Shown in pieces: positions 12,510 through 63,810 of a DNA stretch of 64,000 nucleotides. This stretch comes from Ophelia neglecta (Eukaryota). Both the position numbers and the translations under genes were made by a program. Every line of letters begins with the position of its first letter. Positions within the stretch are counted from its first letter, which is position 1. The DNA lies in assembly GCA_965285935.1 (NCBI GenBank), contig OZ260663.1, forward strand, positions 82,646,001 through 82,710,000. The letters are read 5' to 3'. A model generated the notes under the pieces. The model saw only the letters and a list, made by a program, of their open reading frames with translations. It was not told where the DNA came from and did no database searches.

Positions 12510-12930
12510 ATTGATTGAGTCATAACTACGATTGTCTGAAGCCAATCTTAATTTGCTGTCCGTCGGGGTTGAGCAATATATGACCCGCTCACCCCCGCTG
12601 TCCTCATATCTCTGGATCCTAACTCAGATACCTCCCCGGGCAACCAATCACCCAGTCCCTGCTAACAATCTCCTGATACAGTCTGCCAACATTATGACCG
12701 CTCTTCGGGATTTTATCGGTACTTGGCCTGATGAAGCAGACGTGATGGTGGCATGTCTTGCTAGACGATGGGTGAAATTTGTCACTCCTGTTTTATTAGT
12801 CTGTTTATTTCAGAGTTCAGAGTGGTAGGTCTCGGGAACAAGGTTAAGATTACTAACAAGGACCTCATAATTCACATTCTGTCACAGACAGATAAGACCC
12901 ATAGGCAGTGAAAAATTAACCGTTAATATT
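12510..12930. promoter_or_regulatory. Element B, inverted copy
   Basis: CCGCTCTTCGG..ACTTGGCCTGAT.AAGC..TGAAATTTGTCACTC..GGTTAAGAT..TAACAAGG.CCTC.TAATTCACATT.TGTCAC matches the reverse complement of 63.4-63.6k. Confidence 0.65.
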
Positions 12931-12964
12931 CTTTACAAGTTACAATCATCGAAATATTACACAA

Positions 12965-13090
12965 ATATTGAAGAGGAAGCAATATGAAGGTATATTGGCC
13001 TAAAGCGAGTAATATTTTTTGCGGCTATAAGCCAGAGGAAAATATCATTTGCTGCAGGCCAATATACATATTGACTCCTCAGAATACTAA
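12965..13090. repeat. About 125-bp imperfect palindrome (MITE-like)
   Basis: GAGGAAGCAATATG..GTATATTGGCCT..AATATTTT pairs with AAAATATC..AGGCCAATATAC.ATATTGACTCCTC. Confidence 0.65.
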
Positions 13091-16000
13091 TTATTGTCGT
13101 ATTATGTTTGTCTGGTATGTTTGATAAAACCCTTTATAGTTCCATCTCACCCCACGTTGGTGAATTGTGTTATCTAAACCGCAATATGCAAACAAGGAGC
13201 CTGTCATCTGATCATACTACTTCAGTAAATAAAATACTCCTCTTTGCTTCAATACATTTTTTCAGAAACTTCATATGTGGATAGTAATGCGGTATTTGAT
13301 ATAAAACTTACCAATGTTATGTTGCTTGTTAAAATATATCAATAAAGTGGGAAATCCCCTTCTATCTCTCGAAACCAATGCAATACGAAAAGTTAATAAA
13401 CGCCCCAAGCATAATACGAAAATTCAATAATAGGAAGGCAATATAATATATATTGTCAATACAAGTTACTAAGTGAAGGTGTTATATATCGTACACTTAA
13501 ACAAAATCAAGTTGGACCCATAAACGGCATGGATATCCAGAAGTCAAAGCAAGATCGCGTATGATTGTGAGGAAAGTTCAACCATAACCCCAACTTCCTG
13601 AAGCCATTCTCAATATTCTGTCTGTGGTGTGAACACAATACGACTCACTCACCCTCGATGTCCTTGTAACTCTCAGTCCTACCTCTGATAACTCCAATGA
13701 CAACCGATCACCCAATAATCGTATGAATCAGTCCGAATTACTTGGAGTTTGTCAAGTATAAAATAGCCTGATATCCCTTACACTGAAAATAAAAGTTTAG
13801 TAAACTAAAAGTTAAACGGGTAAGATTACAATTGCAAGTGAAGCAATAAAATGTAAACCGGCTATTGTATGAATATTATAAAAATTGATAGGCTTTGCTA
13901 TGGCGGATACGACAGCTGCCAACTCATAAAATCTTCACTTTGTTTAAATTTTATCTTACCTTTTGCTTTGTTAACTGTTTTGATAAGCAGGTATGAATTA
14001 AGTATATACAAATGTTTATCTTGGTAAGTACACTAGTTTATACACATACCTCATTCCACTTGTCATAAAAGTCGGGGTGGTCGAATAATGCAGGTGTCAT
14101 TTACATCGGAATGAATTGGAATTTGATTTCTCTTTTCACTTGAGGAGGGAATCTTGTTAACCGCATGGACTATTTTTGATGGCGGCCAACACTGCTTTTG
14201 AGATGTTCCAGATAAACTCTTTCAATAATTTGAATCGATAAGATATATCATGTGTCATATACCCACGGGTATCAGAAAAAAAGTTATAATTCTTTTGAGA
14301 TTTATCTCCGAGATTGTCGTCCAAATTCGAAAGTACAGTGTGGTAAGAAAATTGGAAATTAAAGGGCTGAAAGTAACCCACGACACCGGACACATTCTGT
14401 GGGTTATCTCTACTGGGAATACCAAAATAGAGGGGTAAATAAAATGATGGTTCAACAATACGACCATAATATATCTGACGATGGTATGATACACATGTAA
14501 CTTTGTCAAAGATGAAAACTGTAGTTCCACAAATATGGCAAACTAGTCAATAGGAGTTCGTGTATCAGATGAAATGTCTGAACTCTTAATGGTTGGTTGA
14601 TGACACAGCCTACTTAATTATATCAATTAAATTAAAGCAAGTGGCTGCCATAGTAATTTGAAAAGCCGGCCCACACAACCAGTTCATTGTTGCGAATAGA
14701 GACATTAAGAATTGATACTGATAAAAAATTTAATTGGGCAACGTTAATGAACTTATTGTCAAGAGAACAAACTGGTGAAGTTTGACCGAATGCTTTCATG
14801 GATATGTCACTTGATAACTAATCTGGTTTCTCCACTTTTTGTTATAACGCACAACGAATGCTGCCTTCTAATGCCTGCCCAAGTAGACATTGTCGTTCTT
14901 ATGGATTATGGCTGCCAATAAGTGTTAGAGCTGATTAATAAATGCTCCCAGACAATATGCGAATGACTATTCATATATTTGCAACAGTGAAGGAATGCGA
15001 TCATATGTTTTAGGTGTTGGGCATTCGTCTCCCAATCAGAATTAACAACACCTTTGAACACCATTCCATAACTTTCACACTTGGAAACAAGCATTCATTT
15101 CTAATAGGGTTTTCCAGCTGTTGGCACGGTTATGATGGCTTCATTGGTCAAAGAGACTTTCAAATTTGGCTGAATAAAGATTATATTTTATTAACGACGC
15201 ATTGACCTCCGAGGTATCAGTGGAATATATTTATATATCATATGATTACTTCGATCACGGATGATATTACGGTATTACATGATTGTGCGTGGTGGCTTTA
15301 ACCAGGCAGCTGATCTTTTTACCTAGCTGCTTTCCGGTGTACTTTAAAACAAACTAAACAACCAATACACAAACTGTGAATGAAGCTTGGTCATCTCTTC
15401 ATTTTATTCAGTTAGCGCCTTGTACCAGGCTTTCAAGGAACCCCACAAATCGACCAGCAATACGACCGTTGAGGGACTACAAGATTAACATAGCCACAAA
15501 TTCTCACCCCTATGGTACTCTAGAGGGAGATCAGCTCAACGAACTGCAAATAACAAGTTGTTCGTCTGCTCGTCTGAATTTTTTCCTCGCCATTTCTTCT
15601 GTCTGCAGGCGGGTTCCCCAGACAGCAATTGCTGACAGTGAAGCCCACGATCTGCTGTTACTCACGACGATGCTGGTCCGTTGAGACTACCAGTCCGTAT
15701 TTGGGCGATGACACAAGGGTCACGGCTGCCTAATCCGGCAATAGAAATATTGTTTGCATATCACATGAATTAAGAAAGAATTGGCTTCCATGACATCGGA
15801 CCATTTCCTTTGGTTGCCAGAAATGTCCAGATGACCGACATGAAACTGGTCTGGGAATTCTTAGCACCAAAACTGTAAACAAAAAAAAAAGACATTTTCC
15901 ACTATCATGTCCATATATATGTGTCTTCTGCATAATGCATGCAGACCCAATTGGCTTTATCATAATGTTACACAATTATACAGGTTAACAACGGCTATAA

Positions 16001-19000: not shown

Positions 19001-20840
19001 GTTGGTCTTTGGAAAATATATATTTACAAATTTACACGGACGTATTTCACATATTGAAGTAACAACAAAGTAATCAGTTACAGTTAAATACGTATTTCAC
19101 TAGACCAATGAGGATTGGAGTCCTAATGTGTATAGATACCCTCCTAATAAATGATCTTCGATAAAAATATTATAATAATTTAATAATATTATATCAATGA
19201 TATACATCTATATAAAAATCTCGCGTGAAATCTCGAGATTTTTCCCCTATTGCTCATCTTCCAAGTTTAACTAAGGCATTTTTCACCTAAATGTTTTGTC
19301 AGAATGTGTTGTGAATTTCGTCCATACATAGATTGTGTCAGGAAAATCTGCGATTACAAGGCGCAGTCGGGGCTGAGAATTAAATTAATAGCGGCGTATC
19401 TGCAGTAAATTGAGGTTTTACTGAAGGCTATTGAGTTGTAACTATAGCTGTGAATGCCTTCAACACAATATTGATTAACTTCAGTATATATACGGATCCA
19501 AAAATGGAGTCATTACACAGAATCTTACTCCACCTGATGGCGTGATCGCGAACTCTAGCTAGTGGTGAGTTCTTCCTCTTTCGAGTAATGGCGGCATTTC
19601 CTTCGAAATGTGAAGATTACTCAGCCAGCATTAAACGATTCGATTCGAAGGCCAATAAGGCCATTTTAGAAAATAAGGTATGCGTAGAGTTTAACGAGAC
19701 TGCAGTCGTTTAAGGTGATCCACTTACCAAAGGTGATACCACGTGAAACTTTATAATAAAACAAATCTAATTAAAATAAGTCCTTGAGAAGGAGGTGAGC
19801 AGCGATTAAACGTGGCCAAAAGCAAACAGTCACAGATCTAAACTTTGGTACTAAACTGTTCTCGCTTGTTAACCAAGTGGCTTCAAAACGATAGACTACT
19901 TGTAATTTGTAATTTGTCGGAGGCAGTCACCTCCTTCTCCGTTTGACGGCAAATTATTTTCAGTCGGATAACATCTTCGCCTTTTTCGATTTGCTCCGCG
20001 GTCGGAAGATGGCAGTCCTGCATCTGATAGGGGGCAACTCGAGTCTCAGGGGTTTACCACTTCGTGAGAGCAATTTCAACTTGCTAAAGTGTCCATAGCT
20101 GCAGTAATAGCTCGCCGAATAAAGTGCTTATCAGCGCCACCGTGAATACAAAAAGGCCGGAGATGGCGAGAGGGGATTTGCTGGGAGCTGATATCGGTTG
20201 TGGTTATTAGGCGAACTTCGAGCCGGATCAGTATATCTGGGGTATCTATAATTGGCGAGTTGGTCGCCGACACCTGGGTCTGAGATTGAACCACAGATAG
20301 GGGTGGGTTGCATGCCCGTGGCACTGCCTCCTCCTTCCCTACCATCCCCTGTCACCTCCCTATCTCAAATCACCATCGACCTTTGCTGAATTGTAGATCA
20401 GAGCAAGGGCAATAAATACATATCATATTGTCTGATTGGGGGCCCATCGGAATCAACATCCATAAGACTGAGTTATTACTCAGCGCACATCCCCGCCTTA
20501 CGCTGATCACTGTACTGAGAATGACCTCAGACCATCGTTGTTAAAGTATAATGGGAGTCTCCGTGTTTGAATGTCCACCAAGGCCCCGATGACAAACACT
20601 AACCCTTAACAGAGAGCCCCACTGTCTTATAACTCTATAAAGTATATAGTAAGTCAGCCGGACTATATACAGATATTCTAGTAGGCTATATGGGATTCGT
20701 CCTCGAAATCCTGGTTAGTCACGTCCCTCGGTATAAAAATACCGATATATTATGTCCCCCCGTCTTTTAACTATAGGCAGGGTACTGACTCAATGGGACT
20801 TGATAAAATGTTACATCCAGGGTCGCAATATCCCTAACTA

Positions 20841-21009
20841 CCGTGAAACCTGCTAATAAAGGCCGCCCCAGGGAATGAAAAATACTGGCCTGATTTTAGA
20901 GACGGTCTGGTTATTTAAAAGTGAAAACATAAACATTGTGTTCATAAGTGTTGTCTCAATCGACAGAGTGGTCTTAATGTAGAGGTGATCTTTAAAGCAC
21001 GTTTCACTG
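20841..21009. mobile_element. Related, degenerate pogo-type MITE
   Basis: Imperfect TIRs CCGTGAAACCTGCT / AGCACGTTTCACTG, TA on the left flank, similar length to 648-825. Confidence 0.7.
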
Positions 21010-24000
21010 CATGTATGTACACCAAAATACCACTGGAATTAAACATATCAAAGTGTTTGTATAAGCTTTATAACACCAATAAAAGGGCACTTTTTAGCCA
21101 ATTAGTCGTGCTTTAAGAGCTACAATCTTATTAAGTCATTAACAAGGATACAACAGCTAGGCCTAGTTTGTATAAAATTATGCTTATCCATCCTTTACGG
21201 AAGAAAACTTGAAAATTTCTACGGCACTACCCGAACTCATTTGACTTTATTCCCTTTGCCTTGTGTTCATCCCCACGTCGGCGACTGACTCTAGGTTTAC
21301 ATGCAACGAGGTGCAGAACACACAATTATCCAACCCGTTACATTGTGCCGGGCAGAGCAGCTTTTTTTAATTGGCGCCAACCAAGCCTTAATGGATTCAC
21401 CTTCCATCCATTTGGGAATAAGATTAATTACACAATTAATAATTAGACATCCAAGTAAACCTGATTTTTAATATATAATTAAAAGCCATGCTAAAAGAGA
21501 GGGTATTTAGGTTATACGATATTTCAATGCGGTAGGGAAATATAAATTACAGGTGCGAAATATTACAACTCGTCACATAGCATATTATAAAACAAGACTA
21601 TCAGAAAATATCGTTTTTCATTTTAATGTGTCAAAAAGGCAAACGTGTCAGCATAAAAACTGTGAATAATGACTGAAAACTTGATAATACAAGGTTTTTA
21701 AACATCATAAAATGTATCCAATATGGCGGCTTTCGGTCCAATTTCCGGCTATCAGTAGTGTATGATTAGCTGTCATATCATCATAAAACCACCTAGGCAT
21801 CAAGTATCCCAGCGTCTGTGGCTATCGGGGTGGTCCGATCTAGGCAGAGGGATCTTTTACACCAAAGTGAATTGAAACTTTATTTCCCCTTTCAAAACCG
21901 TTTAACGCTTATCTGGAAGCAGCCTAAACAGGTGTGTACCCAATACAAAACAGTCCAGGCGCGAAATAAGCGTCCACGGATATAACCATTTGTCTGACAT
22001 TTAACAAAAGGCACCATTTAAACGTCACCCACCGTACTGATGGAAGGCGGATAAGCTAAAATTTTAATAGATGAAGTCAAAACTGGCGAGGCACTTCACC
22101 TATCGTATTTATACATGTCCCTTACCGCGGAGAATAAAACATTTAGGTGCATATTATCTGATTAAGGTTGGTATTTTAATTGAGCTATGTTGATTGATGG
22201 TTACACTGTAATTGTCGTATTTTGATTAGATTATGACAAGGTTAATTAGTTCTATCAAAGATGCGTACAACAAGTATTATTGATGATATAAGCATCTCAG
22301 GCGCATTTAAGTCTATGGTACAACTCAATTGATACTTGGTACACTTGACAAATATTGCTGATTAATGAATTTCATTGTTAAAAAACACATAGTTTTCCAT
22401 CCTATTTTAAAAGAGAAATTTATCAGCTGCATCAACATTTTTTTTTTCAAAATGGCAGGAATAAATGAACATAAAAGTTTACAGGAATATTTCACTATCC
22501 TGCATTCTATATATTTTATATTTATATTTGCTGTCAAATGCTTGCCAAGCTAGAATGCGTTTATACGATACTCCGCCTTTTGTTTAAAATCTCTTGTGGC
22601 TTTAATAACAAACCAATAAGTTACAAGCTTAAAGAATTCATAGTTTATTCGTTCAAATACAACAGGCGACATGGGCATATATAAGTCTTGAATACAAAGA
22701 ACGAGACGAGCCAGTTAATAAGAATGCAGACGACTTACACCGCTTTTAACTTAAATCAGTAAAGTTCTTAAACGATGGTAAATACAACACAAGTCTGCTC
22801 AGCTGTCGATGACTGTCAATACTAATTTATCATTCATGTTCTGCCGAGTACTGATGCTAAACAGTTTCCTCAACATGGCAGCATCGAGTCGTTAACGTCC
22901 CGGCATCCACCAGAACGAATCACATAACAATGTTTGACCAAGCGACCATCTGTTCCACTAATTCTAATGACAAATTAGCGAAGCCAACGTGTTGTGTTTC
23001 TGGATTTCTATATGCCTTTTAAATGAAATAGGTACAACAGACGGTGTTCAGATTGGCTTCCAAGGTGATTTGAAATAAGCCATCGCCAATCACCGACTTT
23101 CTGGAGGCTAAATATAAATGTTATCAGCTGCTCCCGTGGTCAACGAAACAGGAAAGTCGAAAGTCGAATGACCTGGTATTTGTACATGAATATCTCTGCG
23201 TGTTTTGCCAACACAAATAACCAAATGCAAAAGCTCTACAATCTTGCTATAGTGCTATATTGATGTTTATTTATTTTAAAAATTGAAATAATACGCCTAT
23301 AAGTTAAATTTGGTCCAATGGTCCAAAGATTTAAATATTTCTTCAACCAAAAGGGTACCCATGAGTCGGATCGGCTTTAAGTATTTTCAGTCATTGTAAC
23401 ATCTATTACTATCGGCCTAATGTGTGAATGCGGGAGAAAAAGCTGTAGCCTGCTTATTCTTGAAGGTACTTGCTTCACTTTAATTTATTCTTCCATAAAT
23501 AAATGCAATTCAACTTAACTGTATTGATAAAAGTCCCTGCTGTCCCCTTTTCCTTTTCAACAATAATTTATATCTTCTGTTTTATCAATATACTTAGTTT
23601 ACTTCAAAAACCTATTTAACGTTATGGGCTACTAATCAGCGAATTAAAAGCAATAAAATGGCTAAAAAATACTAAATGTTTTGAGCAAAGCCTTCGGATT
23701 CTACTAAATCATTGAAGCAGTTAACCGTTTTTAAATCCGCGCCAGGATCGATCACCCACCGACTGCTGGGTTATAACAAATGACCAGCTATCTCATTTCC
23801 CGCCCTAGCCGACACTATCGTCTGTCTCCTAATAAATCACTGTCGTGTAAAATTCTCTATTTGTCTTTCACTGGTCTTAATCAAGCTTTAAACAGTGTAA
23901 CAACGAAATAGGGAGGACACGAGAGTTCAATAGCCTATCAGTATGAGAGCTTAGCCGCTCCTACATATCACCCCACGCTAATCCGCAGTCTCCAACGAGC

Positions 24001-25640
24001 CGGGTAGCGGCTTCACAAATCGTGGTCGGTCTAGTTTATTACCCGTACTTTGGATAAAATACGGATTAGCCCGGCTCTGTCTGGTTTATCGACCATCGAC
24101 CGCTGTCATTTCGCGCCAGGCTGAGGCTTAATTGACTGAGGGCCCGGTTGGCCGGACTACCCCACTCGCCGGTCCAGGGGACGAATATTCACAAGCCCAT
24201 GGCGTGGTTCATGAAGAGTAATTCGAAAATAAATTTAGAATATAGAGACACTTAACCTCTTTATCCAAACAGCCCGTTTGCCTCAGCATGTAAGCAACTG
24301 CCCAATATCATTGGCCATTGGAGCGCCTCGCTGCTCTTTGTAACTGAACGCGGCAATAAAATGTAACTGCAGAAACCACCAGTAAATACTTGTAGGCATA
24401 TACCCCTGAACAAATCATTGAAACCATTGGGCATTAAACAGTTTAGAAATTAAAAAATGACATCATTATTATTTTTTCTGTGCGCTCGGCCAATGTCCTA
24501 TCAAAACAGATAAACACCGATTTATCCTTGAACAGTTACCATATCGGGCACTATGACCTTTTCGTGCCCCTTAACTGACATCCACTCAAGGCACCGAGAG
24601 AATCCTATTTATTCATAGACCTATTTGTTATCCATTTCCATAATCCATAAACGGATTTGTGTCTGATTGCCTGTCGAAGGAGCACAATAAGAAGTGACAT
24701 GAAGGAATATTGGCTAAATATGCTCTTGACTAGAGGCCCTTCCCATATCCTGTTCACATTGTTCTTACCCTTTGGGAATTGCTTATTTAGACCTTTGCCT
24801 GTCTACCAAAAACAAAATAATAAGCAAGTATTTATGGAAATAATTAATAAATTATATTGTCTATGCTCCCGGGACATTGCGAATGTAATGTCATTTGTAT
24901 CATGCTTAAGCCATAATTATTTCAAAAAAGGCCAAATAAAATTTATTATGTGTTTCCGGTAACCCTACCGACCGTCCAAAATGGGCAAAATGAAAATTTT
25001 ATTTTATTTTCTCGTACTGAATTTCATGGCATGCAATTCACTACCAGAAATACCACAAACCCATCGGTTTATGTAATAAAAAATTACAAAAAAGTATTTT
25101 TTTTAATACTATTTTAAATGGAGTGAATTGTCAGATTTGTTCATCAGAAATAAACAACTATTTGTCCTGTTAATACTGTTACATGTTGCTTTAACATATG
25201 TTGACAGAAGCCCGAAAAAGTTACAGCGAAAAAACATTAAACATTATATAATAAGTTTCCTTTTACTTCTAAATATGAAGTCCGTCCTCAAACAGCCCCC
25301 CCCCCCCCCCAGCGCTGCAGCCGGACATGCGTCACCGGAAGCCGGGCATGTTCAGTCCGCAGGCAGCCGCTCTCGCAGGCCTGCGCTTATCGTGTGGGGA
25401 CTTACAGATACGTTTGGGGGTGTGTGAGCACATTTCAATATACATGTATATGCAGGTCAATGCCAAAGAAGCATTGGCATATTATTGTCTTTTTCGCTTA
25501 CCATATATCCATTTCTCGAGCAACATTGTAAATTGTTTACTTATCAGGAAACATGTGAATTATTAAATATTTTCATAGGTTCCAATATTTTGACCAGGTG
25601 TTGAAGTATGAAACTCGTGCGATGAACTGTTGTTATTATG

Positions 25641-25646
25641 TTTATT
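25641..25646 (-). terminator. Candidate polyadenylation signal of Tbx20
   Basis: AATAAA on the minus strand about 490 nt after the stop; other candidates lie near 24.9-25.0 kb. Confidence 0.35.
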
Positions 25647-41835: not shown

Positions 41836-41836
<1 letters not shown>

Positions 41837-48290: not shown

Positions 48291-51200
48291 TTTAAGTATT
48301 CTACGAGAGGTCATACCTGAAGGAAGCAGAACAGCGAAGGAGGGTATTATAGGGTAACAAAAGGGCTGGTTGACTGAGATTAGATTCAATTTAAAACAAA
48401 ATATAAATGAGCCATTATAAAAACGGCACCTGATGAAAAGGATTTAGGGAGACATCTGTTAAGTTACTAGTGCACTGTTTCAACTGATATAGTTTCTTGC
48501 AATAGGTGTGTTTAATCGGTAAAACTCCAACTTGAGTATTCTGTTGACTGTTCGAGAGGTGGCAGTTTGTCAATGACAAAACTAGGAAGCTAAAGGAGTC
48601 TGGCGGATAAGGCGCGTGCTGTAAGTCATCACTGTCACTAATCACGATTCCTTGGATATCTCAACATACGTATAAAAATACGGAACTCGAGAAACGTGCA
48701 ACTAATGAAAACACGCTCTGTGGATGGTACTATTGGGATTTGACTTCTTTTACAAATAAAGAACGCACTGTAACCACTCGATGGACTTATAGGTCTCCGT
48801 ACTATGATACCAAAACTGTTTCGAAATCATGGATATTAGGGCACAAGCTAACTTTAGTATAAAGTCCTTGCATCGACAACAATTAAAAAGCACGCTTCAA
48901 AAAATTGAATCACTCATGTGTTGGAGATGCATTAAAGACTTGACAATAAAAAGTGATAACTAAGAAGCGAGTAAAGTCAAGATTAATGTTTTAAAAATCA
49001 AACAAGAGGAAGAGGCGCGTTAAATCACACATACTGTTTTAAAAACTAAAAACAGGCAGGTATCGTGTCCTAAAATATTAGGCCAGCATCATGCTTTTTC
49101 TTGATGGCTGGTGGCTCCTAGTCTCTGATTATCTGGTGATTCCTGATTTCATTTTGGTTGGTGGTGCTTTATAATTTCAGATCGAATTTATTGATTATTC
49201 CTGATAAATGATTGAGATTTGTCTGGCGGGTATCCACTCCCCTTTTTATGGCTCGAATGTTATTACCTCGACATGACCTATAGACATGGGTTCAATTCCT
49301 TTTAGTAAGGATATCAATCTCTGACTTAATGTGACCAACATCTGGCTTGTGCAAACACACGTGATCCAAATGTTTTAAAACTTGACTACCGGTTTTCACC
49401 CCTATTTTAAGTAAATAACTTATCATGTGTGTGGTGTTGTAGACATTTTCAGCTGAACAAAATCTTTTGTTGAACGCCTACGAGAAGAAGTATGCATTGG
49501 CAGATATTTTCGTCCAAACAGCTGGAATCTATATGTTTTGGTAGTCAATTCATGTATTGAGATTCAAGATTTATATGTATATTATATGAATATATTTATG
49601 GCATTTGTTTTGATGGTAAAAGATAATAAACATACTGCAGACAAATGTTCTCAAAATCGACGATTCTTCTATATAGGATGCCTGAACCATATTTAACTGA
49701 GAAATCACAATCATCTTAACACTTTTAGTTAACATTGTACAATGTTGGCTGATTTTCACGATTTTCAAATTAAAATCTTTTCATAATGCGATAACAATCA
49801 GTGTTCAATTTCTGAAGGAATTCTCGGCGGTCTTATTTAAAATGTCGACTATGGTGAGACGCTGAGAAGGCGGGAAGATTCAGGCACACGACGTCCCGGC
49901 AGCCGACAACTGATTACTGATTCCAGGTTTATTACTTGTGACGGCTCATTTTTCTGCTTCCTCCTCAATCTGCATCAACAGAATTATAACCACCAGTGGG
50001 GTCGTAATGAAATTACCGGCCTGTGAAGTTTAGGAACCAAGCGCCAAGATATTCCACGCCATATCGCCGTAATTCGATAATGATCTGTTAATCAAATAAG
50101 GCGAGGAGACCGTTCTTTAAAATGAATTGGATAAAGTGCCTTGTAGAATGTTACCATGGAAAGCTGGTGAAACTTGCTTTTCAGCCGATTTGTGATGGAA
50201 GGGCTGTTAAGAATTGAGATAGGCACGATTTATCATCTGAAAGGAGCCACTGAAGCCGATGAAGCTAAGGGTGTCCGCTAATCATATTAAAGAGAGGCAC
50301 CAGTCGAACAAGTGATCGTTCGTTGCAGCATACAGTGCCAGATGAGATGATCGCACCGCAAAGCCAAGACGTAACTGCGGCTTTTGACTGCGGCTTGAAG
50401 ACGCGATAACCTCGCTGCCTGGCCGCGATAACACCGCGCTTCAGCCATGTGTTAACCACGGGGATGCCGCGATAACGCCGCGGCCTAGCCTTGTCTCTAC
50501 CACGGACTGGATTGTAACGTAATATCGCTCTGCTAGGCCAAGCCACTCAACGAGAAAGTTCCACATTCTTTAGGCCTATATGATGCACCTTTTTTACCTG
50601 CAACGGTCGAAACATTATTTGAGAGCAGACACGACAAAAAATACATCGCCGATTAGTTCATACTCGTTAATTGAGGATCGTAAACTCCGTCAAAGCCATT
50701 ACGACACTAAAATTATGTGCAAAAGCAAATTCAAAAAATATAAATAAGAGTTGATCTAATAGGATAAACGGGTTTCATGTTAGGTTTCAATATGCCAGTG
50801 GTCAAACAAAAGGAGGCTTGCAGTCGTTCAAAGGGCGACTAATCATGATGTTGACAAAGCCATAAGATGGTGTGTCTTCGATGTCTGACACGAGGCTTGT
50901 ACAATATAACATCCTAGGGGATTACAGAAGAACATCATGCCCGCCATTAAAGATGAAATTGGTGTATGGATTTTGTTTTTTACCTTTGCTACAACGGTTG
51001 AAAAGGCATTATGTAATTTAACAGGCTGAGTCGACTATAGTTTTTACTGAGTTTAATTTGCATGTACAATAACCAGGCAAATCAGGCGGAATTCAGAAGT
51101 GGGCCTCAATCCCTTTACCCGGGCGATGGGCGATTGTCAATACGTTCTATGGAAAGTAATAAAAAATGGCTGCTGAATTGTAATTAAATGTATGAACAAT

Positions 51201-52489
51201 TTTGCCCGGGATTTTAATTTTGTAAATTGGTATGGCCGTGATTTTTAATCATGCGATTCTCTTCCTGGAGAGTTAGTTTTCTTTACTGTGTAAATATAAA
51301 GGACATTGTCCTCTGGGTGTCATTTTCTCGCCACCTCTCTAAGCTTGGTCGTCTGTCGTTTTCTGTTGTTATCAGATTGTCATCCATTTAATACCAATCA
51401 TTGGTATGGGTGTCAAAAATCTACAAGAAAATTTCGAGACTTGACATATTATGTGCTGAGCGACTGTGACACACTCAACTTGGCCACATTGTCACCACGT
51501 TCAAACAGCTGAAAGCTACGGCCTCGACATGAAACACCACTATTAGAGGAAAACATTCCTTTACACCGGCAATCGTCACAGTAGTAAATACAAAGGTAAC
51601 TTTGCACATTTCTTAACCAAAAATAACGAACAACACAGCCACTATAATATAAAGATCTTTATCTAATAGCCTTACCGCCATACATATTTATGTTATTGTG
51701 GATGACACAAGTGTCTCATAGCTGGCTCTAGGTGTTATCTAATAGTCCACTAAAACAGCAGACGACAGGATGTGAGAGTCAAACGCCAAGGAATATAAAG
51801 GACGCAGACAATTTATTGTGATGAAACATCCAGGTTTTAACACCTGGGAGGTGACATTTACACTTAATAACAAGGAGTGCTCAATAAAGAGCAAATGGCG
51901 GTTTTTCAAAGCCAAGCCTAGTCCAATGCTATTATTATTTCGTAGCGTGTCGGTTTTCAAGCATCCAAAAAGCTGTCACCCATGCAGTTGGAGACGGGGG
52001 TAACCGGCTGGGAGGGGTGAAGTTTTTGGAGCGGAGGTGGTGTCAGTACCCTCCTTTTATTCCCCTAGTTGCTCCACTAGCTTGGGGTGGGTGTCCATTC
52101 CGAGAGGGAGGTTCGGGGCCCTAGTTTCCTGACCCATTTTTGGCAGTAGACACACTGTCCTCCGATTTTCAGGATTAATAATGAATACCAATGTAAAGGC
52201 CTACTACGCTGATGTCGAGATTTGATGAAGTAAACAGTATCCTATTGAAGCTGCATATCAATGTTCCGCTGAACAATATGCCATTTAACTCTTTGACACA
52301 CGAGACCACTAAGCACTATATATGTATACATATGTATATATATATGTTATATATATTCATGTATACAAAGGCCTTGGCAATGCACATTTATGCAGTTTCT
52401 TGTTTATCATTTATTTCCGATGGATTTCAAAACGGGTGTAGCTTTAACAGGGTTATGTGTTAGAAAATACCTAACAGGTTGAAACATTA

Positions 52490-52890: not shown

Positions 52891-55800
52891 AATTTATTTT
52901 GCCAGTCGGACCATGTCAACGGTTAGTTATTTGCAAATTAACTAGTATTTCGACTATTCGATGCCGTGGCACATGTAAATCGGTTTGCTTTATATAGCCA
53001 ATACTTGTAACACGAGTTAACTGTAAGAAATCCTAAATGTGAACCAGTTAGTGCCTTGCATTATTGGAATCGGGGGTGGGGGAAGGGGGGGGGGGGGGTC
53101 CACTGAGGGGCCGGCGAAATTGTGTGCTTTATAACAGTGGTAGCGGGCTACCATCCGACGACCTCTACAGCCTGTCTGTAGAAACATTTTAAAAACGGGA
53201 GTGTACATCCAACACACAATGCCACATAATCAACCGATTACAGTCTTTACGATCGGGCCGAAATTACTGTCAGACCCACAAATATCAATCCCCGTTTCTC
53301 TAACTGCAAATAAACTCAGATTGATAATAACAAAAATACATATCGACATCACTTGCCCTTTAAAATTTTCCGAAGATGCGAGATGTGAGCACAAAACAAA
53401 CTGGTCAGGATTTAATGTACGACCGAGATGAAATATGTTATGGGTCAGAGGTAAGCCCTGCATAGCAGTTATTCACCAGACACGATCTAACACTAATAGC
53501 TAGTATATGATTTTAATGTCCACTGGAAATTGGTATGAGATGGTTTGTCCCTTGGACACTTTGTCCAACTTTCCTACTACACAGTATTATTCCAGGAATG
53601 CCTGTGACATGAACTCCTCATCCTATGATATCTAATCTGCTGACAGACGACAGAAAGTCGTCTGCACTCGGCCAGATAATTACAGATATGGTTCCGGATT
53701 TATCTTATTTGTTTTCTTATTTTCCCACGATTAGTGGTTAATACAACGTTCCATTGAGAGAGTCTGTCAGCGGGGAATTTTTTTGAGATAGACAGCATAC
53801 AAGAAATGTAACAGGCAGCGGTTACATTTCTATTTCAAAACCGCATTGGCTGTGTTCAACACAACAAAAACATTTGAGTGATAGGCCTACAACGCGAGCA
53901 GTGGTCGTGAGCGCAGCCACGGACGTAAACTTATAAAGATTACTGGCTACGGACGCAATTTGATAGTTGTAGACTTCATGGCAGAGGGCTAAGGCTCAAA
54001 TACCACGCTACATTTTTGCTGTTTTCAATGAGCAATGTTAATTCCAGATATATGTATAATTATAAATCTATTTTGTTCCTCGGAACCAGGACACAATGAA
54101 ATGAGAAAGTTTATATTTATTCGGATATCTTTTGCTCGGCCACAGTGTCGACCCTTTGTACCACTTGTACTTAAGAGAATTGTCAATACATGGGATTCTG
54201 TGAGACATTGCGGGGTGGGGGGGGGGGGGCTTGCCATTTCTGGGGGGGGGGGCTTGCCATTTCTAAAACCAAAATATAGAGTAAGGACATTACTCGGGCT
54301 ACTATTCAGAAAAGGGGTGTCGGTTGTGTGGATACTGGCTTGCCTGCTGCTTTAAAGGGCTTTACGTTGATGACTTTCATACAAAAAGTGAACAAGTAAA
54401 ATTATCAGCCATATATTTTTGTTCACATACTAAAATGCAACATGGTCACTAGTGAAGCATCATTACTTCTCTTATGGTATATTCTCCCAACTTTGCCTGT
54501 GGTTTGGTAAAATATGTGCACACACAATTTGATTTTTCATCTGCCCCTGTGGGTGGAAGTAGTAAATGTTTCCAGTCACTTAGTAGATCAAGTGATGTGT
54601 GTATAGTGATAGAGCATTCTTCACGTGGCACAAATGATCTGAGTAGTTTGCAGACGACCAACTTACACTCGACAACAGGCGATGTAGCGATGATTGCCAG
54701 CCTTACTCACCTCGGCTAAGGAGTTAAGTTCTTACCCCAAGGCATTGGTGAGAAAACTTCTGAAGAAATCAGCGCATCGTCGTAGTTGTTTTTAGACATC
54801 ACCAGCTTCTTGGATTTAGGTTTGTTTGAAATGATCGGCTATGATTTGTGAAGAGGCAGACGAGACCGTTCGGGGCTCACTGTTAATCCACACGTCACAT
54901 GTGATGAGCCTTCAGGTGTTTAATCCCCTTCACCTGGCGGCAGTGAGCGGCAAGAGTAATACGGGATGATGGCTTCGAGTGCACTAGCATGATCCTTAGA
55001 ATATACTTTCGAATTTCGAAAAGTGTGCTCGAATATTTATGTTCAATTAAAAAGTTTCAATCAAGTGTTTGCCTGTGTTTTTAATTCAAGGCTGATAGAT
55101 TTTGTATACCTTTTCTCATTTATTCAATCTTTCAGGGAGGCACTGGAACATACACTGTCCAGATTTTTACACTTCAACGCCTTGACATATTGGCGCCCCA
55201 TATATTGCCAGGCGACATTTTAGAATGCCCTTTCAACCGGAGCAGACGACAATTTCCATACATGTTACTTAGCAGACGACACCAGCGTGACCTAACTGAG
55301 CGACCTCAAGAATTAAATCTCGTAACACAATTAATGCCAGAAACAAAGCTCTCGGCAGTCTGTCCGGTTCAATTTAAAATGACACAGCCCATGATTCGCA
55401 GAGCACCGATGTCATATAGCCGAGTCATTAAGAAGCACTTGATAGCTTCTCTTTAAATTCCTCTACGTAGGTTTTCAAGCCTGGGTTACTTTTCCACAAG
55501 CTGGTCGTGGCCGCAGGATGGCGTGCTGACAAGAGCATGTACACTCCTCCTTGGTGGAGTATCAATCCACCATCCATTTTGTTATGTGAAAGGCCAGAAT
55601 CACAATATTATACATTTTAGCCTGTGATATACTGGTTAAGTTGTCCTTGGTGTAAGTCGCATAGGAAAGGACAAGAATTAGTTTGTACGATGATTGGCAT
55701 TCGCCAGCCTATTTCTGATAAAGGCAGACAAGAGCATACAATAACAGTATGGTTCCGTACTAACTTACTCAGCCGGGTAAAAACATAGACACAACACAGA

Positions 55801-58800
55801 GTTTGGAGAAATTAGCTCTGAGCGGTCCAAAGCAAATAAGATGGCTGACAGTTTCTGTACAAAAAAACAATTACGTGTACAGTAATGTTTTTTAAAGGCA
55901 AATAACTCATTACGTATAATAATTGAATGATCATACGCACTAAAAGAGGACAAAGGCTTTGAGCGATTTTTCCCCTCATCCTAGGGCTATAGGACCCATG
56001 TGAATCTGCTACATACTGATAGAAACTCGATTATTTCTGATTAATGTGTTCAGTCGCAATAAAAGTATGACTGGTTCACTACACAATTATCATTGCAATA
56101 TCGAGGACATTTAACCGACTACCTTGTCCTGGAGGTTATCAGGGCAAATCCATATATGGTCTCACATTAGGGGACAGTATTTCACAGCCCCATTCTTCTC
56201 ATGGGGCCTACAATTGGTATTTATGGTAATTAATAGTTTGCAGGCTGATTTATAATTGCACTTGTCATGCAGTTGGTCCACGTGGTGAGGTCGTTGTTGT
56301 GAAGTACATCAGAAAATATGAAAATTGCTGTTTTTTTACCCTAGCGTAGCGGGTCTGAAATTGCATATCGAATTTTGGACTTGCATATTATTTCAGAATT
56401 ATATATTTATATTAGATTACCAAATGGCTTCATATTCCTGGCCAATGATGATAATACACTCTTGTTTGACCTTTCTGGCCCGACAGATTACATTCACAGT
56501 AGTGTGTTGTGGGTAATAACCTGGTGCTGACATCTGTGGGCAGTAGACTAATCTACAAGCGTTCCTACCTGTAAGAAAACTTATCTATTATTAATCTCAT
56601 TACCAGCTTATATACAGTTTGAAACATGCGACTTATGTGTGTGCGGTGATAGCTGACGGTTCCTGCTAATTTTGGACTAATTTATTGAACTTTACTAGCT
56701 TAATAATCTTGCTGAGTCTCCAAGGTATCCACTCTTTTGTGTGTTTTTTGGGCCCCACCCTTTGCCTAGCTCCCTCTCTCTCCTCTTGAGGAGCTGTGTC
56801 TTCTTGATCATGCTGCGGTTCTTCCCCTTGAAGAACACTCCTTCCACCAAAGCAAAATCCCCTATACTATTTCTGTTCTCTGCTCATTTGACTACTCTAC
56901 CCCCTCGCCCTATGAAAAACCCTTATCAATTTTCCCGAAACTGACTCCCCTTACTACATATGTACCCTGAGCTCGCCCCTTGCTTACTTCCGCCATCTAC
57001 CGGACGTAACCTTTTTAAACTCTAAGCAAGCCTCCCCTACCGCAGCTGTTCTCCACGGCGATTAAATCTCAATCCACTCGTATCCTCTTACTATAATATT
57101 TGCATTGCAAATTAGGTTTCAACAGAAGGCTGTCAGCGGGTGGTGTTAAATTAATGTTTATGTGTTTAGTCTTGAAGCGTAAATAATGAAAACAAATGAC
57201 AGTAGAATAAAAAACCGATTATGCGCCTGGGTGACAAGCCCCCAACACTCCCTTATGTTTAAGTATTATGAAATAACCTTATCGAGAATATTTAATGTTG
57301 GCCAATCTCATTCAAACGTGACTATCTGTGAAGGACTTTAAGCAGATGACATAAGTGTTAATATAATTATAGGCTGACTTGAAAGAATATATTTAAGAAA
57401 TGTTTCAACATATTTGTTTCTGGTGTCATTGGGGTGCCTTTATCACAAAAGTTCCATAAGAAAAATATATCATGTACTTATTTGTTGTTTTGTTCAAAGA
57501 TAATACATTGTCTCGGAGCACTGAGGAGGTGGCGGGGATCCTTTTGTACTGATATAACTTTTTTCATTCGGCCAACTTATAAGGTCATGTGGTCCTCTAC
57601 CGGTTAGTGGCTCGAACGCCAGTAATGTTTTGCCCTGTACGCTTGAAGACCTTATCTTCGGTTTATGTGATTCCATAGTCCCGAGTGACCTGGCTATTCT
57701 GGATGCAGCCCTTTGAACGTGATAAATTATCCCCGGTGGTAATTCGCCATATAGGGCTCCTCTCTCTTAATAATCAGTGTCATCATCCCCGCCCTCGTGG
57801 GGGTCAGGAGCATTAGGGTAGTCTCTCTCCTCGGGGGTGGGGGGGGGGGGGTTGTAGACACTACCTAGCAGTCCTTTTTCTTGAAGCATTGTTGTCTCCG
57901 TTATCAATAATTGGTTCACGAAGACATATAACTCGCATTCTTCTTACGTGATTTGCCCTTTGTACGTATCCACTGATTTCTTGTCGACACACGAGACAAT
58001 GAGTTAAAGTGTAAGTTACGCTGGAGCCACCCCCCGCGCAGTTAGCCCTTTATTCCTCAGTTTGACTTAAGAGGTGATTTTCTTCACGTATTGTGTCCAA
58101 GGCATCACAGCAGGGACGCGCAGACGTGTAGGACATTGTCATTATCTACGGGTTGTTAGTCGGGAGAGGGGTCCCTAGCTTCTAGACAGAGACCCTTAAA
58201 CACCGTAACACTCTCCTGGACATACATCATTGTAGAGAGGCCGTCGACCATATGAACCCATTTTCTGCTCCTGAATACTGATTGATGTATCATAGGTGTT
58301 CTTGTGTCAAACACTTCATTACAGAGTCAATAGATCTGCCCACCACCCACTGCGGGCCGAAAGGCTCTTCACTCCTCTACGGGTGAATTATCGCCTTGAT
58401 TTGTAATTTACATTTATTTCAAATTCCAGCATTTCCAATATAAAATAAAGAAACGACAAACCCTATGCTGTGGCGACGTATGAATGGTTTTGAGGATTTC
58501 CGTAATGTGTGCAGTTATTTTGGTGTTAGAAAGTCTGCACTTGTACCAAAGGTAATAGTCCTTTGCAAATTACGGAAAGGTTGGGGGTGTCTCAGAGCCC
58601 CCTTCCCCCCCCCCCTCTATTTAATTTACCATTATAGTGTACTCTGCCGGTCTCTTGAGTCTGCATGCCTTCTATCGGTAATTTATTGAGACAAACCAAC
58701 AAAAGTTCACACATAAAGTCCTATCATACCTAGAGTGATTATCTTAAAATTCATTTTCAGTATAGATCTGTTTGGGTCATGGACATTCTCACTATGTTAG

Positions 58801-59051
58801 CACCAAGTTATCATTATTTATAGAAAACCATTGCATAAACTCCCCTGTCCAATCGCTTAAATATAATTGTCTACACATTGATGGTTTTGGAGGGAGGGGG
58901 AGGGGGTGGCCTGGGGGGAGGGTTGATGGGTGGGTGCTGGTGTTGGGCGGAGGGGGGGGGGTACACATGGAGTCACAAGAATAATACTTTATAATAGTAA
59001 ATAGATGATAATGGTTCTGGTAAGCATGACAACGACATTGTTTGGAGATAA

Positions 59052-59355
59052 ACTAATCAAACTGTGATCCCCGGCGGCTTGAATTTGTTTCGAGTCTGGA
59101 AAATGTCATGTCTCGAGGCGATGTCGTTCTCTGTAGCAATATCAGTCTAATATCGCCCATGTTGATGATACGGTAGCCGCGTTATCGGTCCACGGCTATT
59201 TATAAAGGGACCTGTGTTGAGTTAATGAGTCTTTGAATCAGGTGTGTTGATGGTAATTTAACCCGGGCATTATCAGGTCGACAGTTTTAAACAGACACGG
59301 TGGTTAAATAGCCGTGAAATTAGAGTTGATGTTCAGTTTTTATCGCTGGAATGAA
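59052..59355. promoter_or_regulatory. Element A, ghost copy
   Basis: TGTCTCGAGGCGATGTCGTT, GGACCTG..GAGTTAATGA, GAATCAGGTG, GTGGTTAAA and ATGTTCAG.TTTTATCGC occur in the same order as at 38.9-39.2k. Confidence 0.65.
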
Positions 59356-60636
59356 ACATGGTACATCGGGATGGCGATCTGACAGCCTCAAAGAAGAATT
59401 GGCAACTCGTCGGTGTAATTACTCCTATATATTATATTCAAATCATGTTAATGGTTTTATCATGCCTTCCAAGCGATCGACAATGAGATAACTGCGAATG
59501 TGACACGTTTTATGTCAAGGATAAATTAGGTTTTTATAATCAAACAAGTCAAACATCCGACTATTGTTCATTTGTTCATCAAAGCATATGTACAGTCTAG
59601 GTAGTAGGACCAACATTTTGAATATCTTCAATGAATAGCTAGGTTACTCCGGCCAATTTTTCAATAAAAGTAACTGAACAACTCATTTCGTACAAAAATC
59701 GCAGACGTAAGGCTATTGGACACCTGGCCGACAATACGGGAGTAGGTCTATGTACGGAGATGGCTTATATAAAGATATATAAATACATTTCTCCTATCAG
59801 GATACATATTGCATATTGTAATTGATAATATCTTTCAGTTGCCCTTTCAAATCCCAATACAGTATTAATTTCGGCAATAATCATAACATTGCATGTACAT
59901 TGAAGCAGCTCGCCCTCATCAAGACAGTGTTGCTATTAACACACGTACACTTGATTGCTGTAGCTATTGATTGATAATCATTCGTATCATATCGACACAC
60001 CATTTTAAAAGAAGATCGTGGTAAAAATGTATGTATCTTCTATATATATATTTTATAGTATACGCTGACTAGAAACTCAAGTGAAATGAATAGGTTTCAA
60101 GGCCAAGCGAAAACTTGAATAGATTGTTGTTGGGGCACAAGTATTGACAACTTAAGTAGAAGCCTTTCCTATAATACCGAGGAATTCCATTTAATATTAT
60201 AAATCTATGCCAAGTCAGGAATAATTACAATGACACACTTCTGAATCAGGCGCGAGTGGAAACTGACAATATGTCAGTGGCAATTCGCCATTTTGTAAAC
60301 AGATTTGCCGAGTGTACGTGTCAAATGATATTTATTGAAGGCCTGATCAGCGTTTGAGCCGGCGAACGGTAAGACGGATTGACAGGTTTGTAAGAAGAGT
60401 GGAAGAAGGGAGATTCTCTGAGACGAGAGGAGTAAGGGGCATTGACATTTGTGGAGGCCATGTGGGGTGGGCTATCGGAGATGTATACAAGTCGAATATA
60501 TAGTCGCGCTGCTTGTTGACAATGTGTACATCCTCAGGAGGGTCAAAACGGTGCCAGAACATCGCTATCTGTTTGAACCGCTTCATAATGATCAAAAGGT
60601 TTGATTTCTCGATGTGGTAATCTCTCATAGAAGCAC

Positions 60637-60755
60637 GGGGTAGGTGAGTGGGTACTGAGCAGGGGTGTGGGTGTAGGCTGGGGGTTGGGGTGGGGTAGGT
60701 GAGTGGGTACTGAGCAGGGGTGTGGGTGTAGGCTGGGGGTTGGGGTAGGGTGGGT
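60637..60755. repeat. G-rich 55-bp tandem duplication (G-quadruplex-prone)
   Basis: GGGGTAGGTGAGTGGGTACTGAGCAGGGGTGTGGGTGTAGGCTGGGGGTTGGGGT twice; explains the Pro-rich ORFs on the minus strand. Confidence 0.9.
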
Positions 60756-63336
60756 GCTGAAGATGGCATATCTATTCCACGATATTAATCGACATTTGAT
60801 TCGACAAGTCATCATAACCATGAGTAGTTCTGCGGGTCTATCCTTTCCAATTGATACCATGGACATAGCTCTCGTTCTTGTCATAAATCCTCTGTGTGCT
60901 ATTGACCGAAAGGAATTATCAAACACAATTCTACATTCCTGACACTTGCTCAACGCCAGTTGAGTATGTGCCAGGCGTTTTTGATATGTGGTTGGTCAGA
61001 CAAATCGGCCTGCATATCTGAAGCAGCCGAATTTCGGCAGACGTATTCTAGGCCTGAAAGACGATGCCGCCATTGCTATCGTTATTCCATATCGGTGTGA
61101 GACGACGCCCCTTGTTTTGACTTTTGTCAGCGAGGGACCACAGCCAATTTAGCGCCTGTCACAGCGACATCGTTCTCAGCACCCAGCCACAGACGAAAGT
61201 CCCTCGTGGGACAGACTGACTTCAGAAAACTAACACAGTATGTCAAATATCGGAGATTTGGGAGGCTGGCGTTAATGCAACTGTCAACGCATGAATATGG
61301 TCTCCTTGTCCTACGGAGTGATTTGATGAAAGTTTTGCAGGCCCGCAGTTGCTCAAATGGCCGTCTTGGGAAAACATCGTCCGACATCTTATTAAGATGG
61401 CGAAAAGGCAATATTCTGATACCCTGCTCACCATCCTGCTCTGTCCTTCGCTCCGCCAAGTTATTTCTTCAGCAAGATAAATGCCCGTGGGAGGATACAT
61501 TCTGGAGCACGTCCGAAAAAGCTAGAATGAAATTTTGAAGACAGGCCTAAAATGGATTCGTCTTTCTCGCATTGCTTGCATTGATGAAAGTATCATTGCG
61601 AGCAATGTCCGAGGTGGTACTACACTAGATAATTAACCCCTGAACAGGACTTACAAACTGCAGAAAGTAGAAAGACAGTCGTTTTATATACACACGAACT
61701 AATATCGATTCAAGCGCGTGCAATAATAGGAAGTGATGAATGGGAAATGGCAAAGTCAAGTCAGTTGACCTCTAGAGTGGTGTGATGAACTGGTGCCCAA
61801 GATATTTGGTCACCTTAGATACCTCATCTATTTCTCACTCCCCATGGGGAAATATTGTATTAGGCTATCATATTATCATGCGTGCTATTTTATATCTCTA
61901 AAAGTGCGCGAAGTTGGGCAAGGGCGTAACACCCTTTTTATTTTGCATTAAGAATATGTTCTTCGGTCACAATTAATCAATATAGGGGCTGGTTTGATAG
62001 AAAAATATCCCTATTTTCCCACGCTACACTACTTTCTCACCTAACTAACACTGCCTAAGCATGGCTGAGGCCGCAAGCGAACCTTGCGAAAAAGTGCGCG
62101 AAGTTAGGCGGTCTTCCCCTATCACATAATGATATTAAGATTCCTAAGCATACTGTATGGTATATGGCACCCACCTTTGCCCTTTTTATGCCTATTTTAA
62201 GGTTGTTTTAAGACTGTCCAGTGCTTGTTTATTAATCGAGTGACCGTAAAGGCGTTACGTATGGGGCGGGTGGTAGGTGGGGTCCTATTTCATGCAGGCA
62301 TCTGTCCACATAGAGGAGTGCAGACAACCTCTCCTTATGGTCACAGCACGCCCGGCCAGGGTTCTTGTTCTAAGCCGCCTATCAGGTCCATTTAAACACC
62401 TTCACGCGTCCTGAAAGAGTGTGCATTTAGCCTAAAAGTAGCAGATGGCCCTTCCTCTAACGAGCTTCACTGGGCAGGCTGCAGACGACCACTGATGTTG
62501 TGATAGTACATGGGAATAGCATAACTAGTACCGTGATGGCATGGCTCGATGGCGTGTAGCAAATAGCGTCTGTTCGAGCGTAACTGATTAATTACCAGTG
62601 CTGATCTGAGACAGGGAGCCTAAATGAAGTGAAGCGAAAACATCGGAAAATAGCCTTCTTATAGGGCACGATCGGGGTGGAGTTACACAACGGCACTATT
62701 TAATGAGCAATTAGACAACATTCCCGTCAGCCCGGTGCTCATCACAGATATCCTGGTTTTCTGCCACAATAATATCAGGACCAAGTTTGCCTTTAGTCCT
62801 CTGTAATATAAATAAGTCTGTTCTTATATTTGTTGAATTATTGACTGAACGTTTTCTCTACTAACACTACTCACTACGATTCGAATACAAACTGAAGAAA
62901 ACAACAAGACAAAAAAGTTCTTCATTAGCACCCGACACGAGAAGACAAGAACCGTGTCCACGTGGTCAGCGTGAGGATAATCCTGCATAAGAAGTATCAC
63001 ACAAGTCTGTGTGTCAAATTCTGTTTAACGGAGCCTTTAATCCACCAGGCATACTTGGCGAAGATTTATACGTTGAAAATGTTATGTGGAATGAAATCCG
63101 CTTTATTTTTTTAAACCATTCAGCAAGACTAGTCTTTCCCTCGATAAAAGCTTTAGGTTAGTGATAACTCCTGGAAAAATAAGATTTATAGAACCGGTAA
63201 GAAATAAAACAACGCTTAAAAAGTCGTTTTTCAATTGAAAATAGTTTCACCTTTATCGCGCTGGGGATGTTATGGGGAGATAGAAGTCTGATTTGTCGGA
63301 AGTCGTCTGCATATTGTACAAATGTCGGCTGAGGAA

Positions 63337-63810
63337 GTGATAACTTGGTGCCGGAGAGCAGCTCCAAGAGACTACGATTTACTGCTGTTGTTCCTCCGCT
63401 ATCTGGGTGTCAGAAGACTTATCTACCAGTGACAAAATGTGAATTACGAGGCCCTTGTTACTTATCTTAACCCGAGCCCGAGAAGATAGCATTCTGACTC
63501 CAGAAATAAACAGCCACATAAAGCAGAGTGACAAATTTCATCCATCGTCTGCTCCTGGTCCCATCGTGTCGGCTTGATCAGGCCAAGTGGTAATAACACA
63601 CCGAAGAGCGGCCATAAAGCAGACAGAATGCTCTGGGAGTCTGGCACCAAGACTGCGGATGTTGTAAAGGGATCTTCCATGGTAAATAACGCCCGTGCAT
63701 CGGGGGAAAATGGGAGAGCGACTTCTAGCAGCCTTGCCCCAGCCGATATCAGATGAAATGACCAGAGATCAATCACAGATAACCGTGACCAAGCGGCAAT
63801 CAATCAAGGA
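63337..63810. promoter_or_regulatory. Element B, third direct copy
   Basis: Aligns with 42.7k, 47.9k and, inverted, 12.5-12.9k. Confidence 0.65.

Follow-up and report, generated by a model that had tools for sequence, protein, structure and literature searches.

Why a non-coding element of ~450 bases, here termed B, should recur many times around the Tbx20 genes of Ophelia neglecta is the question raised by this locus. The 64,000-nucleotide stretch of DNA in which the element was noticed (C5:82,646,001-82,710,000 in a genome of 762 Mb), hereafter the window, had been described in an initial annotation as carrying four homologous copies of B, three direct and one inverted, and all four are present at the named places. 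We read 464 kb around the window (positions in k outside the window are counted from C5:82,386,000), and a profile of B showed that these are only four of 12 full copies, which lie at 88k, 93k, 128k, 143k, 167k, 206k, 272k (12k in the window), 302k (42k), 307k (48k), 323k (63k), 332k and 349k and are accompanied by two fragments. The copies scored 277-414 bits, compared to 2.3 bits for the best stray match, with the qualification that the eight seed copies from which the profile was built match it by construction. Judging from sequence comparison, we estimate a probability of roughly 0.68 that the B copies are enhancers shared by the three Tbx20 genes of this cluster, kept after most extra copies of the gene were lost.

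B is tied to a single locus. All of its genome matches lie within ~260 kb around the three intact Tbx20 genes (C5:82.474-82.735 Mb): DNA queries with B returned 11/11, 5/5, 6/6 and 2/2 matches inside the Tbx20 cluster, and the matches of the 332k copy outside it were confined to a GA microsatellite that this copy contains. An exact pattern scan gave 8/8 matches in the cluster and none for the reversed control pattern. This restriction rests on single-sequence queries (n=5) and the one pattern scan, and the DNA search misses copies below ~72% identity (the 63k copy, for instance, was not retrieved with the 332k copy as query). The search does detect dispersed families, since the positive control, an old dispersed repeat of ~190 bases at window 20830-21020, returned 1,041 genomic candidates at ~75% identity. 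Sister blocks K, D and F of the same cluster were likewise local (11/11 matches in the cluster), and a search of metagenome contigs for the B core pattern gave 0 matches and was uninformative.

The architecture of the cluster suggests how B was multiplied. Self-comparison revealed collinear chains (108-123k/386-376k, 126-136k/335-326k, 143-161k/324-310k, 258-282k/361-341k and 167-179k/207-198k), the inverted chains containing 5-12 blocks, and the repeated unit begins with the promoter block and the gene, whose introns carry blocks F, D and i6, and continues with K, L, E, G, B, M and H. In the window, block G, which usually accompanies B, lies at 48445-48616, 63962-64000 and 6713-6900; block E, part of an E-G-B module, at 49818-50236 and 11762-11982; and block H, between B and the next promoter, at 38663-39301 and 58986-59418. 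In the ordered block map unit polarity is + between 88k and 285k and - between 286k and 386k, with the polarity flip, the centre of this large inverted arrangement, at window 24758-26131 (near window 25 kb). The copy at 12k appears inverted because it sits on the other arm of this cluster-wide inversion. Every one of the 12 B copies keeps unit polarity and has a neighbour in common with another copy, and block G is found within ~1 kb of seven of them. Among local blocks B has the highest copy number (12, compared to at most nine for the others: nine for E, eight each for F and G, seven for D), and at least 32 block families recur in the cluster. A tree of B united four inverted pairs with supports of 99 (128k/332k), 98 (143k/323k), 100 (272k/349k) and 87 (167k/206k), and merging these pairs reduces the 12 copies to eight older lineages. 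Collinear flanks and constant polarity fit segmental duplication, not transposition. The proposal of at least four ancestral units therefore held as to the origin of B in duplicated units around Tbx20, and its number has to be raised to these 12 copies and eight lineages.

The four copies in the window have decayed to different degrees. Self-BLAST joined them at E-values of 9e-71 (48k/63k), 3e-33 (12k/63k) and 2e-9 (42k/63k). The fullest copy lies at ~63313-63808 (+). The copy at 47869-48289 (+) is 88% identical to it over its first 211 bases, after which come a 26-base deletion, a decayed centre and a retained 3' tail. The copy at 42748-43156 (+) lies 8.4 kb upstream of the Tbx20 gene in the window and is the most diverged (51-62% core identity to the other three), and the copy at 12506-12899 (-), which belongs to the left arm of the cluster inversion, is itself missing the left arm of B. 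A fragment corresponding to the 3' part of B, a local duplicate detected by self-BLAST and in the block map, lies nearby at 13598-13716 (-). The core pattern quoted in the initial annotation is exact in three of the four copies and has one mismatch in the 12k copy. CAAGT is indeed present in three of the copies and was lost from the 48k copy through the 26-base deletion plus decay, although remnants of the central block persist there, so that its absence is not clean. Similarly, the 42.7k copy has lost part of its left arm, its homology to the 63k copy starting at offset 54, but the 12k copy has lost more (offset 74). A degenerate tandem repeat follows directly after the 42.7k copy (window 43313-43872), and contigs of the same sample skip 78 bases of it.

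The first line of evidence for function is that B is conserved above the DNA around it. Pairs of B copies aligned well beyond the level of unrelated DNA, at z 7.4-21.3 in 8/8 comparisons (for two pairs inflated by conversion, only the unconverted parts were used), compared to z -0.8 to 5.7 for 12 collinear spacers of the same duplication. For example, the 128k/332k pair aligned at z 17.4, and 4/4 neighbouring spacers gave z -0.6 to 1.6. Between units, B cores are still 46-80% identical, compared to a divergence of 0.9-1.65 per site at four-fold sites in exons 5-7 of Tbx20 gene B versus genes A and C. Block pairs at 167-180k/197-207k were rejected as a neutral control because they were found to represent exons from a pair of nested genes; they thus serve as a non-enhancer control, not a neutral one.

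The second line of evidence comes from duplicated units that have lost their coding sequence. At least five units keep Tbx20 intragenic non-coding blocks in order without exons. Within the window, one such dead unit (54516-57167, -) retains promoter-side block P (57063-57167), block F (55091-55472) and block D (54516-54940), and another (1958-4826, +) retains F (1958-2300), K (3362-3635) and L (4418-4826); no exon was found in either. Outside the window, dead units lie at 135-141k (blocks J, F, D, exon-6 flank and i6), at 152-156k (P, F and D; the twin of window 54516-57167), at 340-338k (P, i1a and F) and at 208-211k (D, exon 6 and i6, the 5' half being counted absent for exons and non-coding blocks alike). 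Beyond the three live genes, exon profiles found only the exon 6 at 209k. By a hand count from the block map, dead units retain 1/35 exon slots versus 12/30 intragenic non-coding slots (Fisher P = 2.8e-4), and with one defining block per dead unit left out, 7/25 non-coding slots are still kept (Fisher P = 0.007). The gap between F and D is 151-259 bases in the twin dead units (151 at window 54516-57167) versus 2.6-3.1 kb in live genes, and that between i6 and n64 is 444 bases in a dead unit versus 4.5 kb in a live gene, indicating that several of these gaps are too short to contain the missing exons.

The third line of evidence concerns short words kept among paralogous blocks. B had been described as rich in GATA, NK2-like CAAGTG and TGACA motifs; GATA and TGACA are enriched, whereas CAAGTG occurs in only two of the four window copies. 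In 10 of the 12 B copies WGATAR was counted 27 times versus 9.6 +/- 2.8 expected (0/500 shuffles reached 27), and TGACA 22 times versus 8.4 expected. Since the copies are related by descent, these counts are not independent, and the GATA richness reflects a GATA-rich ancestor. In a retention test among diverged paralogues, copies of at least 88% identity were merged, leaving 32 of 34 local families, and the null was obtained by shifting the substitution pattern along each family (120 nulls). Across the 32 families TGACA (z 4.0) exceeded the best word of 120/120 nulls, and 14 control families had no retained word (their best word was reached by 92/120 nulls). Taken as single words, TAATT, CAGGT(G), TGACAG, GCAGAC and TAATGA were each reached by 0/120 nulls and GATA words by 3-7 of 120. 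CAAGT was reached by 46 and CAAGTG by 14 of 120 nulls cluster-wide, and CAAGTG by 9/120 in B, so the NK2 input proposed earlier was not supported: CAAGTG, the site by which an NK2/tinman-responsive element is recognized, is not preferentially kept in B. Words kept at one column of B are TATC (11/12 copies), AATTA (10/12), TAAACA and CAAGT (8/12 each) and TGACA (7/12). We take the kept words to represent TALE/Meis, Snail/E-box, homeodomain, Fox and Smad sites. The passages of PMC4597108 available to us do not spell out TGACA. A known partnership of GATA and NK2 factors with Tbx20 had also been offered in support, and the portion of PMC7876368 consulted concerns protein partners of Tbx20 and not regulation through B.

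A further signal was found in block F, a sister block of B in intron 1 of Tbx20. Using the consensus of the bone morphogenetic protein (BMP) activating element (BMP-AE, GGCGCCANNNNGNCV) as given in the accessible text of PMC6344883, we found five strict matches in the 464 kb, all of them at one homologous site of block F, where the spacer varies and both half-sites persist; 0/5 of these strict matches lay in B. Copies of block F lie at window 55091-55472 (the copy in the dead unit, with a strict BMP-AE site), 33301-33422 and 1958-2300 and at C5:82,525,008, 82,540,802, 82,724,184 and 82,767,967, and the block also has repeated GCAGAC(G) sites. Block F is thus a better enhancer candidate than B. 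A BMP silencer composite (GRCGNC-N5-GTCT) was considered and rejected, as there was no spacing peak (five at N5 versus 1-6 at other spacings). Smad sites are cited in Tbx20 cardiac elements in the section of a review that we could consult (PMC7876368), and tbx20.1 is listed as a target of phosphorylated SMAD1/5 in Nematostella in the excerpted part of PMC10849676. The conserved BMP-AE site in Tbx20 intron 1 would predict that the BMP control of Tbx20 that has been reported for vertebrates and the sea anemone extends to a spiralian.

Several observations weigh against an enhancer function of B. Three of the 12 spacers still align weakly (z 3.9-5.7), and exons that have decayed by at least 0.7 per site would mostly escape the exon profiles. 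In the retention test the best 6-mer was reached by 7/120 nulls family-wise, and the single words were chosen after a first look at the data, which leaves the family-wise result as the one clean test. Although the cluster is enriched in CAGAC and CAGACG, these words are not preferentially kept (34/120 and 26/120 nulls). Within B alone, no word passed the family-wise null (64/120 for 5-mers and 47/120 for 6-mers), and among-site rate variation is lower in B than in the dispersed repeat (gamma shape 3.7 vs 1.3), which together indicate that site-level constraint within B is weak. In three contig sets of one sample over window 37001-52250, the 42.7k copy differed at at least eight places, one of them in the core, among the differences listed; we regard this as a weak point. 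Finally, gene conversion is active in the cluster and is able to keep patches alike without selection.

Conversion is accordingly the main rival to selection, and the strongest alternative, which we nevertheless consider unlikely, is that B is a functionless relic of duplication whose copies are reset by conversion between inverted arms while the spacers have drifted past the range of conversion. The 63k copy is identical to its inverted partner 180 kb away (C5:82,529,419-82,529,867) over 162 bases (window 63313-63474) and then drops to ~73%, and the 12k copy shares 101 identical bases with its partner at C5:82,734,856 and 95% identity over 296 bases. Identical tracts of this kind between the arms indicate that conversion is active there. 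Intron 3 of Tbx20 genes A and C is identical at 106/109 positions (97%), while intron 8 of the same genes does not align, and in exons 3-4 only 0-1 of 47-48 four-fold sites are different. The absence of a significant word footprint from B and its low rate variation would also suit a relic. On the other hand, most B pairs have a core identity of only 46-80%, too low for ongoing conversion, yet align far above their spacers; exons, the best templates for conversion, are what the dead units lost; and neither the cluster-wide TGACA footprint nor the BMP-AE site with its variable spacer is expected from conversion. Conversion therefore does not readily account for the 46-80% pairs, for the missing exons or for the footprints of the motifs. 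A 742-base block is 98% identical between the arms (C5:82,611,910-82,612,650 versus 82,737,208-82,737,950), far above its neighbours, and may reflect either recent conversion or an insertion.

That B is constrained in some capacity other than that of an enhancer, either as a boundary, tether or silencer organizing the cluster or as an exon of unannotated non-coding transcripts, appears improbable. The presence of one B per unit at fixed polarity, its copy number, which tops that of the other local blocks, and its fairly even evolution along its length would all fit an architectural role, whereas its best-kept words (TATC, AATTA and TAAACA) are ordinary transcription-factor-like sites. An RNA role is opposed by the finding of 0 consensus pairs in B and by the lack of an Rfam match at threshold, the two matches at E 0.39 being far below gathering scores and outside B. 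B is also not a coding exon, as there is no common open frame across the 12 copies and gap lengths modulo 3 are distributed 18/25/17.

Local hopping of a small mobile element, such as a miniature inverted-repeat transposable element (MITE), a short interspersed element (SINE) or a Helitron fragment, is very improbable: a 400-500-base repeat in both orientations might suggest one, and diverged copies below ~72% identity could escape the search, but no copy was found outside the cluster in five DNA queries or the exact pattern scan, the collinear flanks and the polarity and common neighbours kept by 12/12 copies already contradict it, and B lacks terminal inverted repeats (no self-inverted match inside any of the 12 copies), target-site duplications (flank direct repeats of 5-8 bases, the same as random DNA), conserved RNA polymerase III A/B boxes (loose matches scattered and not common to the copies, no copy having both) and a tRNA (ARAGORN, 0 genes in the window). 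These negative scans, together with the locus restriction, led us to reject B as a transposable element, SINE, tRNA or Rfam RNA, and it has the properties neither of a MITE or other DNA transposon nor of a SINE. The many unlinked copies with terminal inverted repeats, target-site duplications or SINE structure that the initial annotation had named as evidence against its interpretation were not found in the DNA queries and the pattern scan, in which the copies were bound to the cluster. Instead, B resembles duplicated conserved non-coding elements (dCNEs) in being non-coding, not an RNA gene, conserved above spacers and present in paralogous copies only near paralogous developmental genes.

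The cluster probably arose by multiplication of a unit of the Tbx20 gene plus flanks, carrying B, through tandem and inverted segmental duplications. Surplus Tbx20 copies would then have been deleted or decayed while selection retained the non-coding blocks. We infer the sequence in which the duplications took place, as well as purifying selection acting on B and an exchange by conversion between the two inverted arms, and conversion may refresh some B copies. If the B copies are enhancers shared by the Tbx20 genes, they would be redundant or partly diverged ones, presumably reading GATA, homeodomain, TALE-type and Fox-type inputs, with sister block F carrying a BMP/Smad input. Whether the B copies have been subfunctionalised, as proposed initially, cannot be separated from decay or redundancy, and some copies have been homogenized instead. 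More tentatively, and with less than even confidence, the cluster may be viewed as a landscape built from dead genes, in which at least eight duplications of the Tbx20 unit were followed by the purging of most coding copies, while the intronic and flanking enhancers were kept and pooled as a conversion-refreshed super-enhancer for three genes, with an input code (TALE, Smad/BMP, GATA, homeodomain, E-box) readable by paralogue comparison in one genome.

Compared with known systems, B would be a variant of dCNEs, with about four copies per surviving gene. In the amphioxus Irx-Sowah locus, as Maeso et al. reportedly described in 2012, a regulatory block was tandem-duplicated, coding exons were lost and several paralogous conserved non-coding elements (CNEs) were retained in a cluster of transcription-factor genes. 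The lost exons are said to have been those of a bystander gene, and the copies to number ~four, whereas the Tbx20 cluster lost duplicates of the target gene itself. Amphioxus CNE names 1a-10d are tabulated in the part of PMC5010895 available to us. The vertebrate Hmx uCNE/dCNE, with a ~500 bp core tandem-duplicated with a transcription-factor gene, is according to the sections consulted (10.1101/2020.09.07.281501) a non-coding element that, as B, was duplicated with a developmental gene and kept in the cluster; it differs in having two copies for 2-3 genes and in being vertebrate-wide and reporter-tested, whereas B, a putative enhancer, has 12 copies for three genes, many of them in gene-less units. 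Vertebrate dCNEs, as presented in the excerpts of PMC2020477, are likewise paralogous elements near paralogous developmental genes, read as common or partitioned regulatory input, but they arose when the whole genome was duplicated, are spread over different chromosomes and were kept along with their genes, whereas B is local and its elements outnumber the genes. Duplication is also a source of redundant shadow enhancers, contributing to 18.3% of the sets in fly and 33.9% of those in mouse and more commonly to large sets in the portion of PMC13345019 seen, although those sets are defined by activity and the B set by sequence, from whole gene units. Amphioxus Pax3/7a-b, a developmental factor duplicated in tandem within that lineage, are also suspected of gene conversion, affecting the DNA-binding domain; in the accessible passages of PMC6010424 no CNE recurs between these paralogues, in contrast to the at least 32 recurring block families of the Tbx20 cluster. 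Recurrent transcription-factor clusters are mentioned in the parts of PMC3342872 and PMC3514665 available, and no published spiralian Tbx20 cluster of this kind was found in the literature searched, which included few subscription journals and excluded supplements.

What differs here from known dCNEs is the scale, each live gene being matched by about four copies of B, and the fact that the lost exons belonged to duplicates of the target gene. If the proposed enhancer function is correct, the cluster would be a clear example from nature of regulatory DNA that persists after the gene copies duplicated with it have gone, and would illustrate how enhancers can become redundant and regulatory landscapes expand without extra protein-coding dosage. 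The 12 diverged copies beside three paralogues would also form a series in which redundancy, role-splitting and decay could be distinguished.

Several other features of the cluster were recorded. A divergent pair of multi-exon protein genes is nested in it (C5:82,557,000-82,566,000 and 82,583,000-82,592,000; L023 and L025-L026), with ~50-70% amino acid identity in exon matches and a B copy downstream of each; six exon pieces gave no Pfam family over cut-off, and Atlas searches provided no lead (nothing above 0.82). The left arm contains a satellite of ~484 bases in ~50 copies (C5:82,618,000-82,643,500; L029-L031). Over C5:82,472,000-82,774,000, CAGACG is 3.3x denser than in the flanks (65.8 vs 19.8 per 100 kb), and the CpG observed/expected ratio is 0.77 compared to 0.63 in the flanks.

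Each of the three live Tbx20 genes is intact: gene A (112-123k, +) has an open frame of 490 amino acids, gene B (window 34319-26131, -) one of 496 and gene C (383-375k, -) one of 500. The nine exons of gene B lie at 34319-34109, 32939-32705, 29486-29385, 29258-29087, 28877-28722, 28322-28246, 27827-27801, 27608-27496 and 26528-26131, and the block map places a partial block F in its intron 1 (33301-33422, -) and block D in its intron 2 (29939-30206, -). PF00907 (T-box) was over cut-off in three of four exon queries, and the named best matches were mostly TBX20/H15-like, the top match being from Owenia (60%); a homologue search with the C-terminal exon found none. In a quick tree of 24 sequences selected from 120 listed matches, with no designated outgroup, the three genes formed one clade (Shimodaira-Hasegawa-like approximate likelihood ratio test (SH-aLRT) support 100) and grouped with those of the annelid Owenia and the nemertean Tubulanus (95), which places the host among the spiralians, with an annelid as the likely identity. 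Four-fold sites in exons 3-4 (window 29486-29087) differ at only 0/47, 1/48 and 1/47 positions among the three genes, and intron 3 of gene B is only 74% alike despite these near-identical exons, which could reflect either exon-limited conversion or regulatory constraint within the exons. Finally, the exon at window 27827-27801 is a micro-exon of 27 bases with AG/GT borders that is in frame and present in all three genes.

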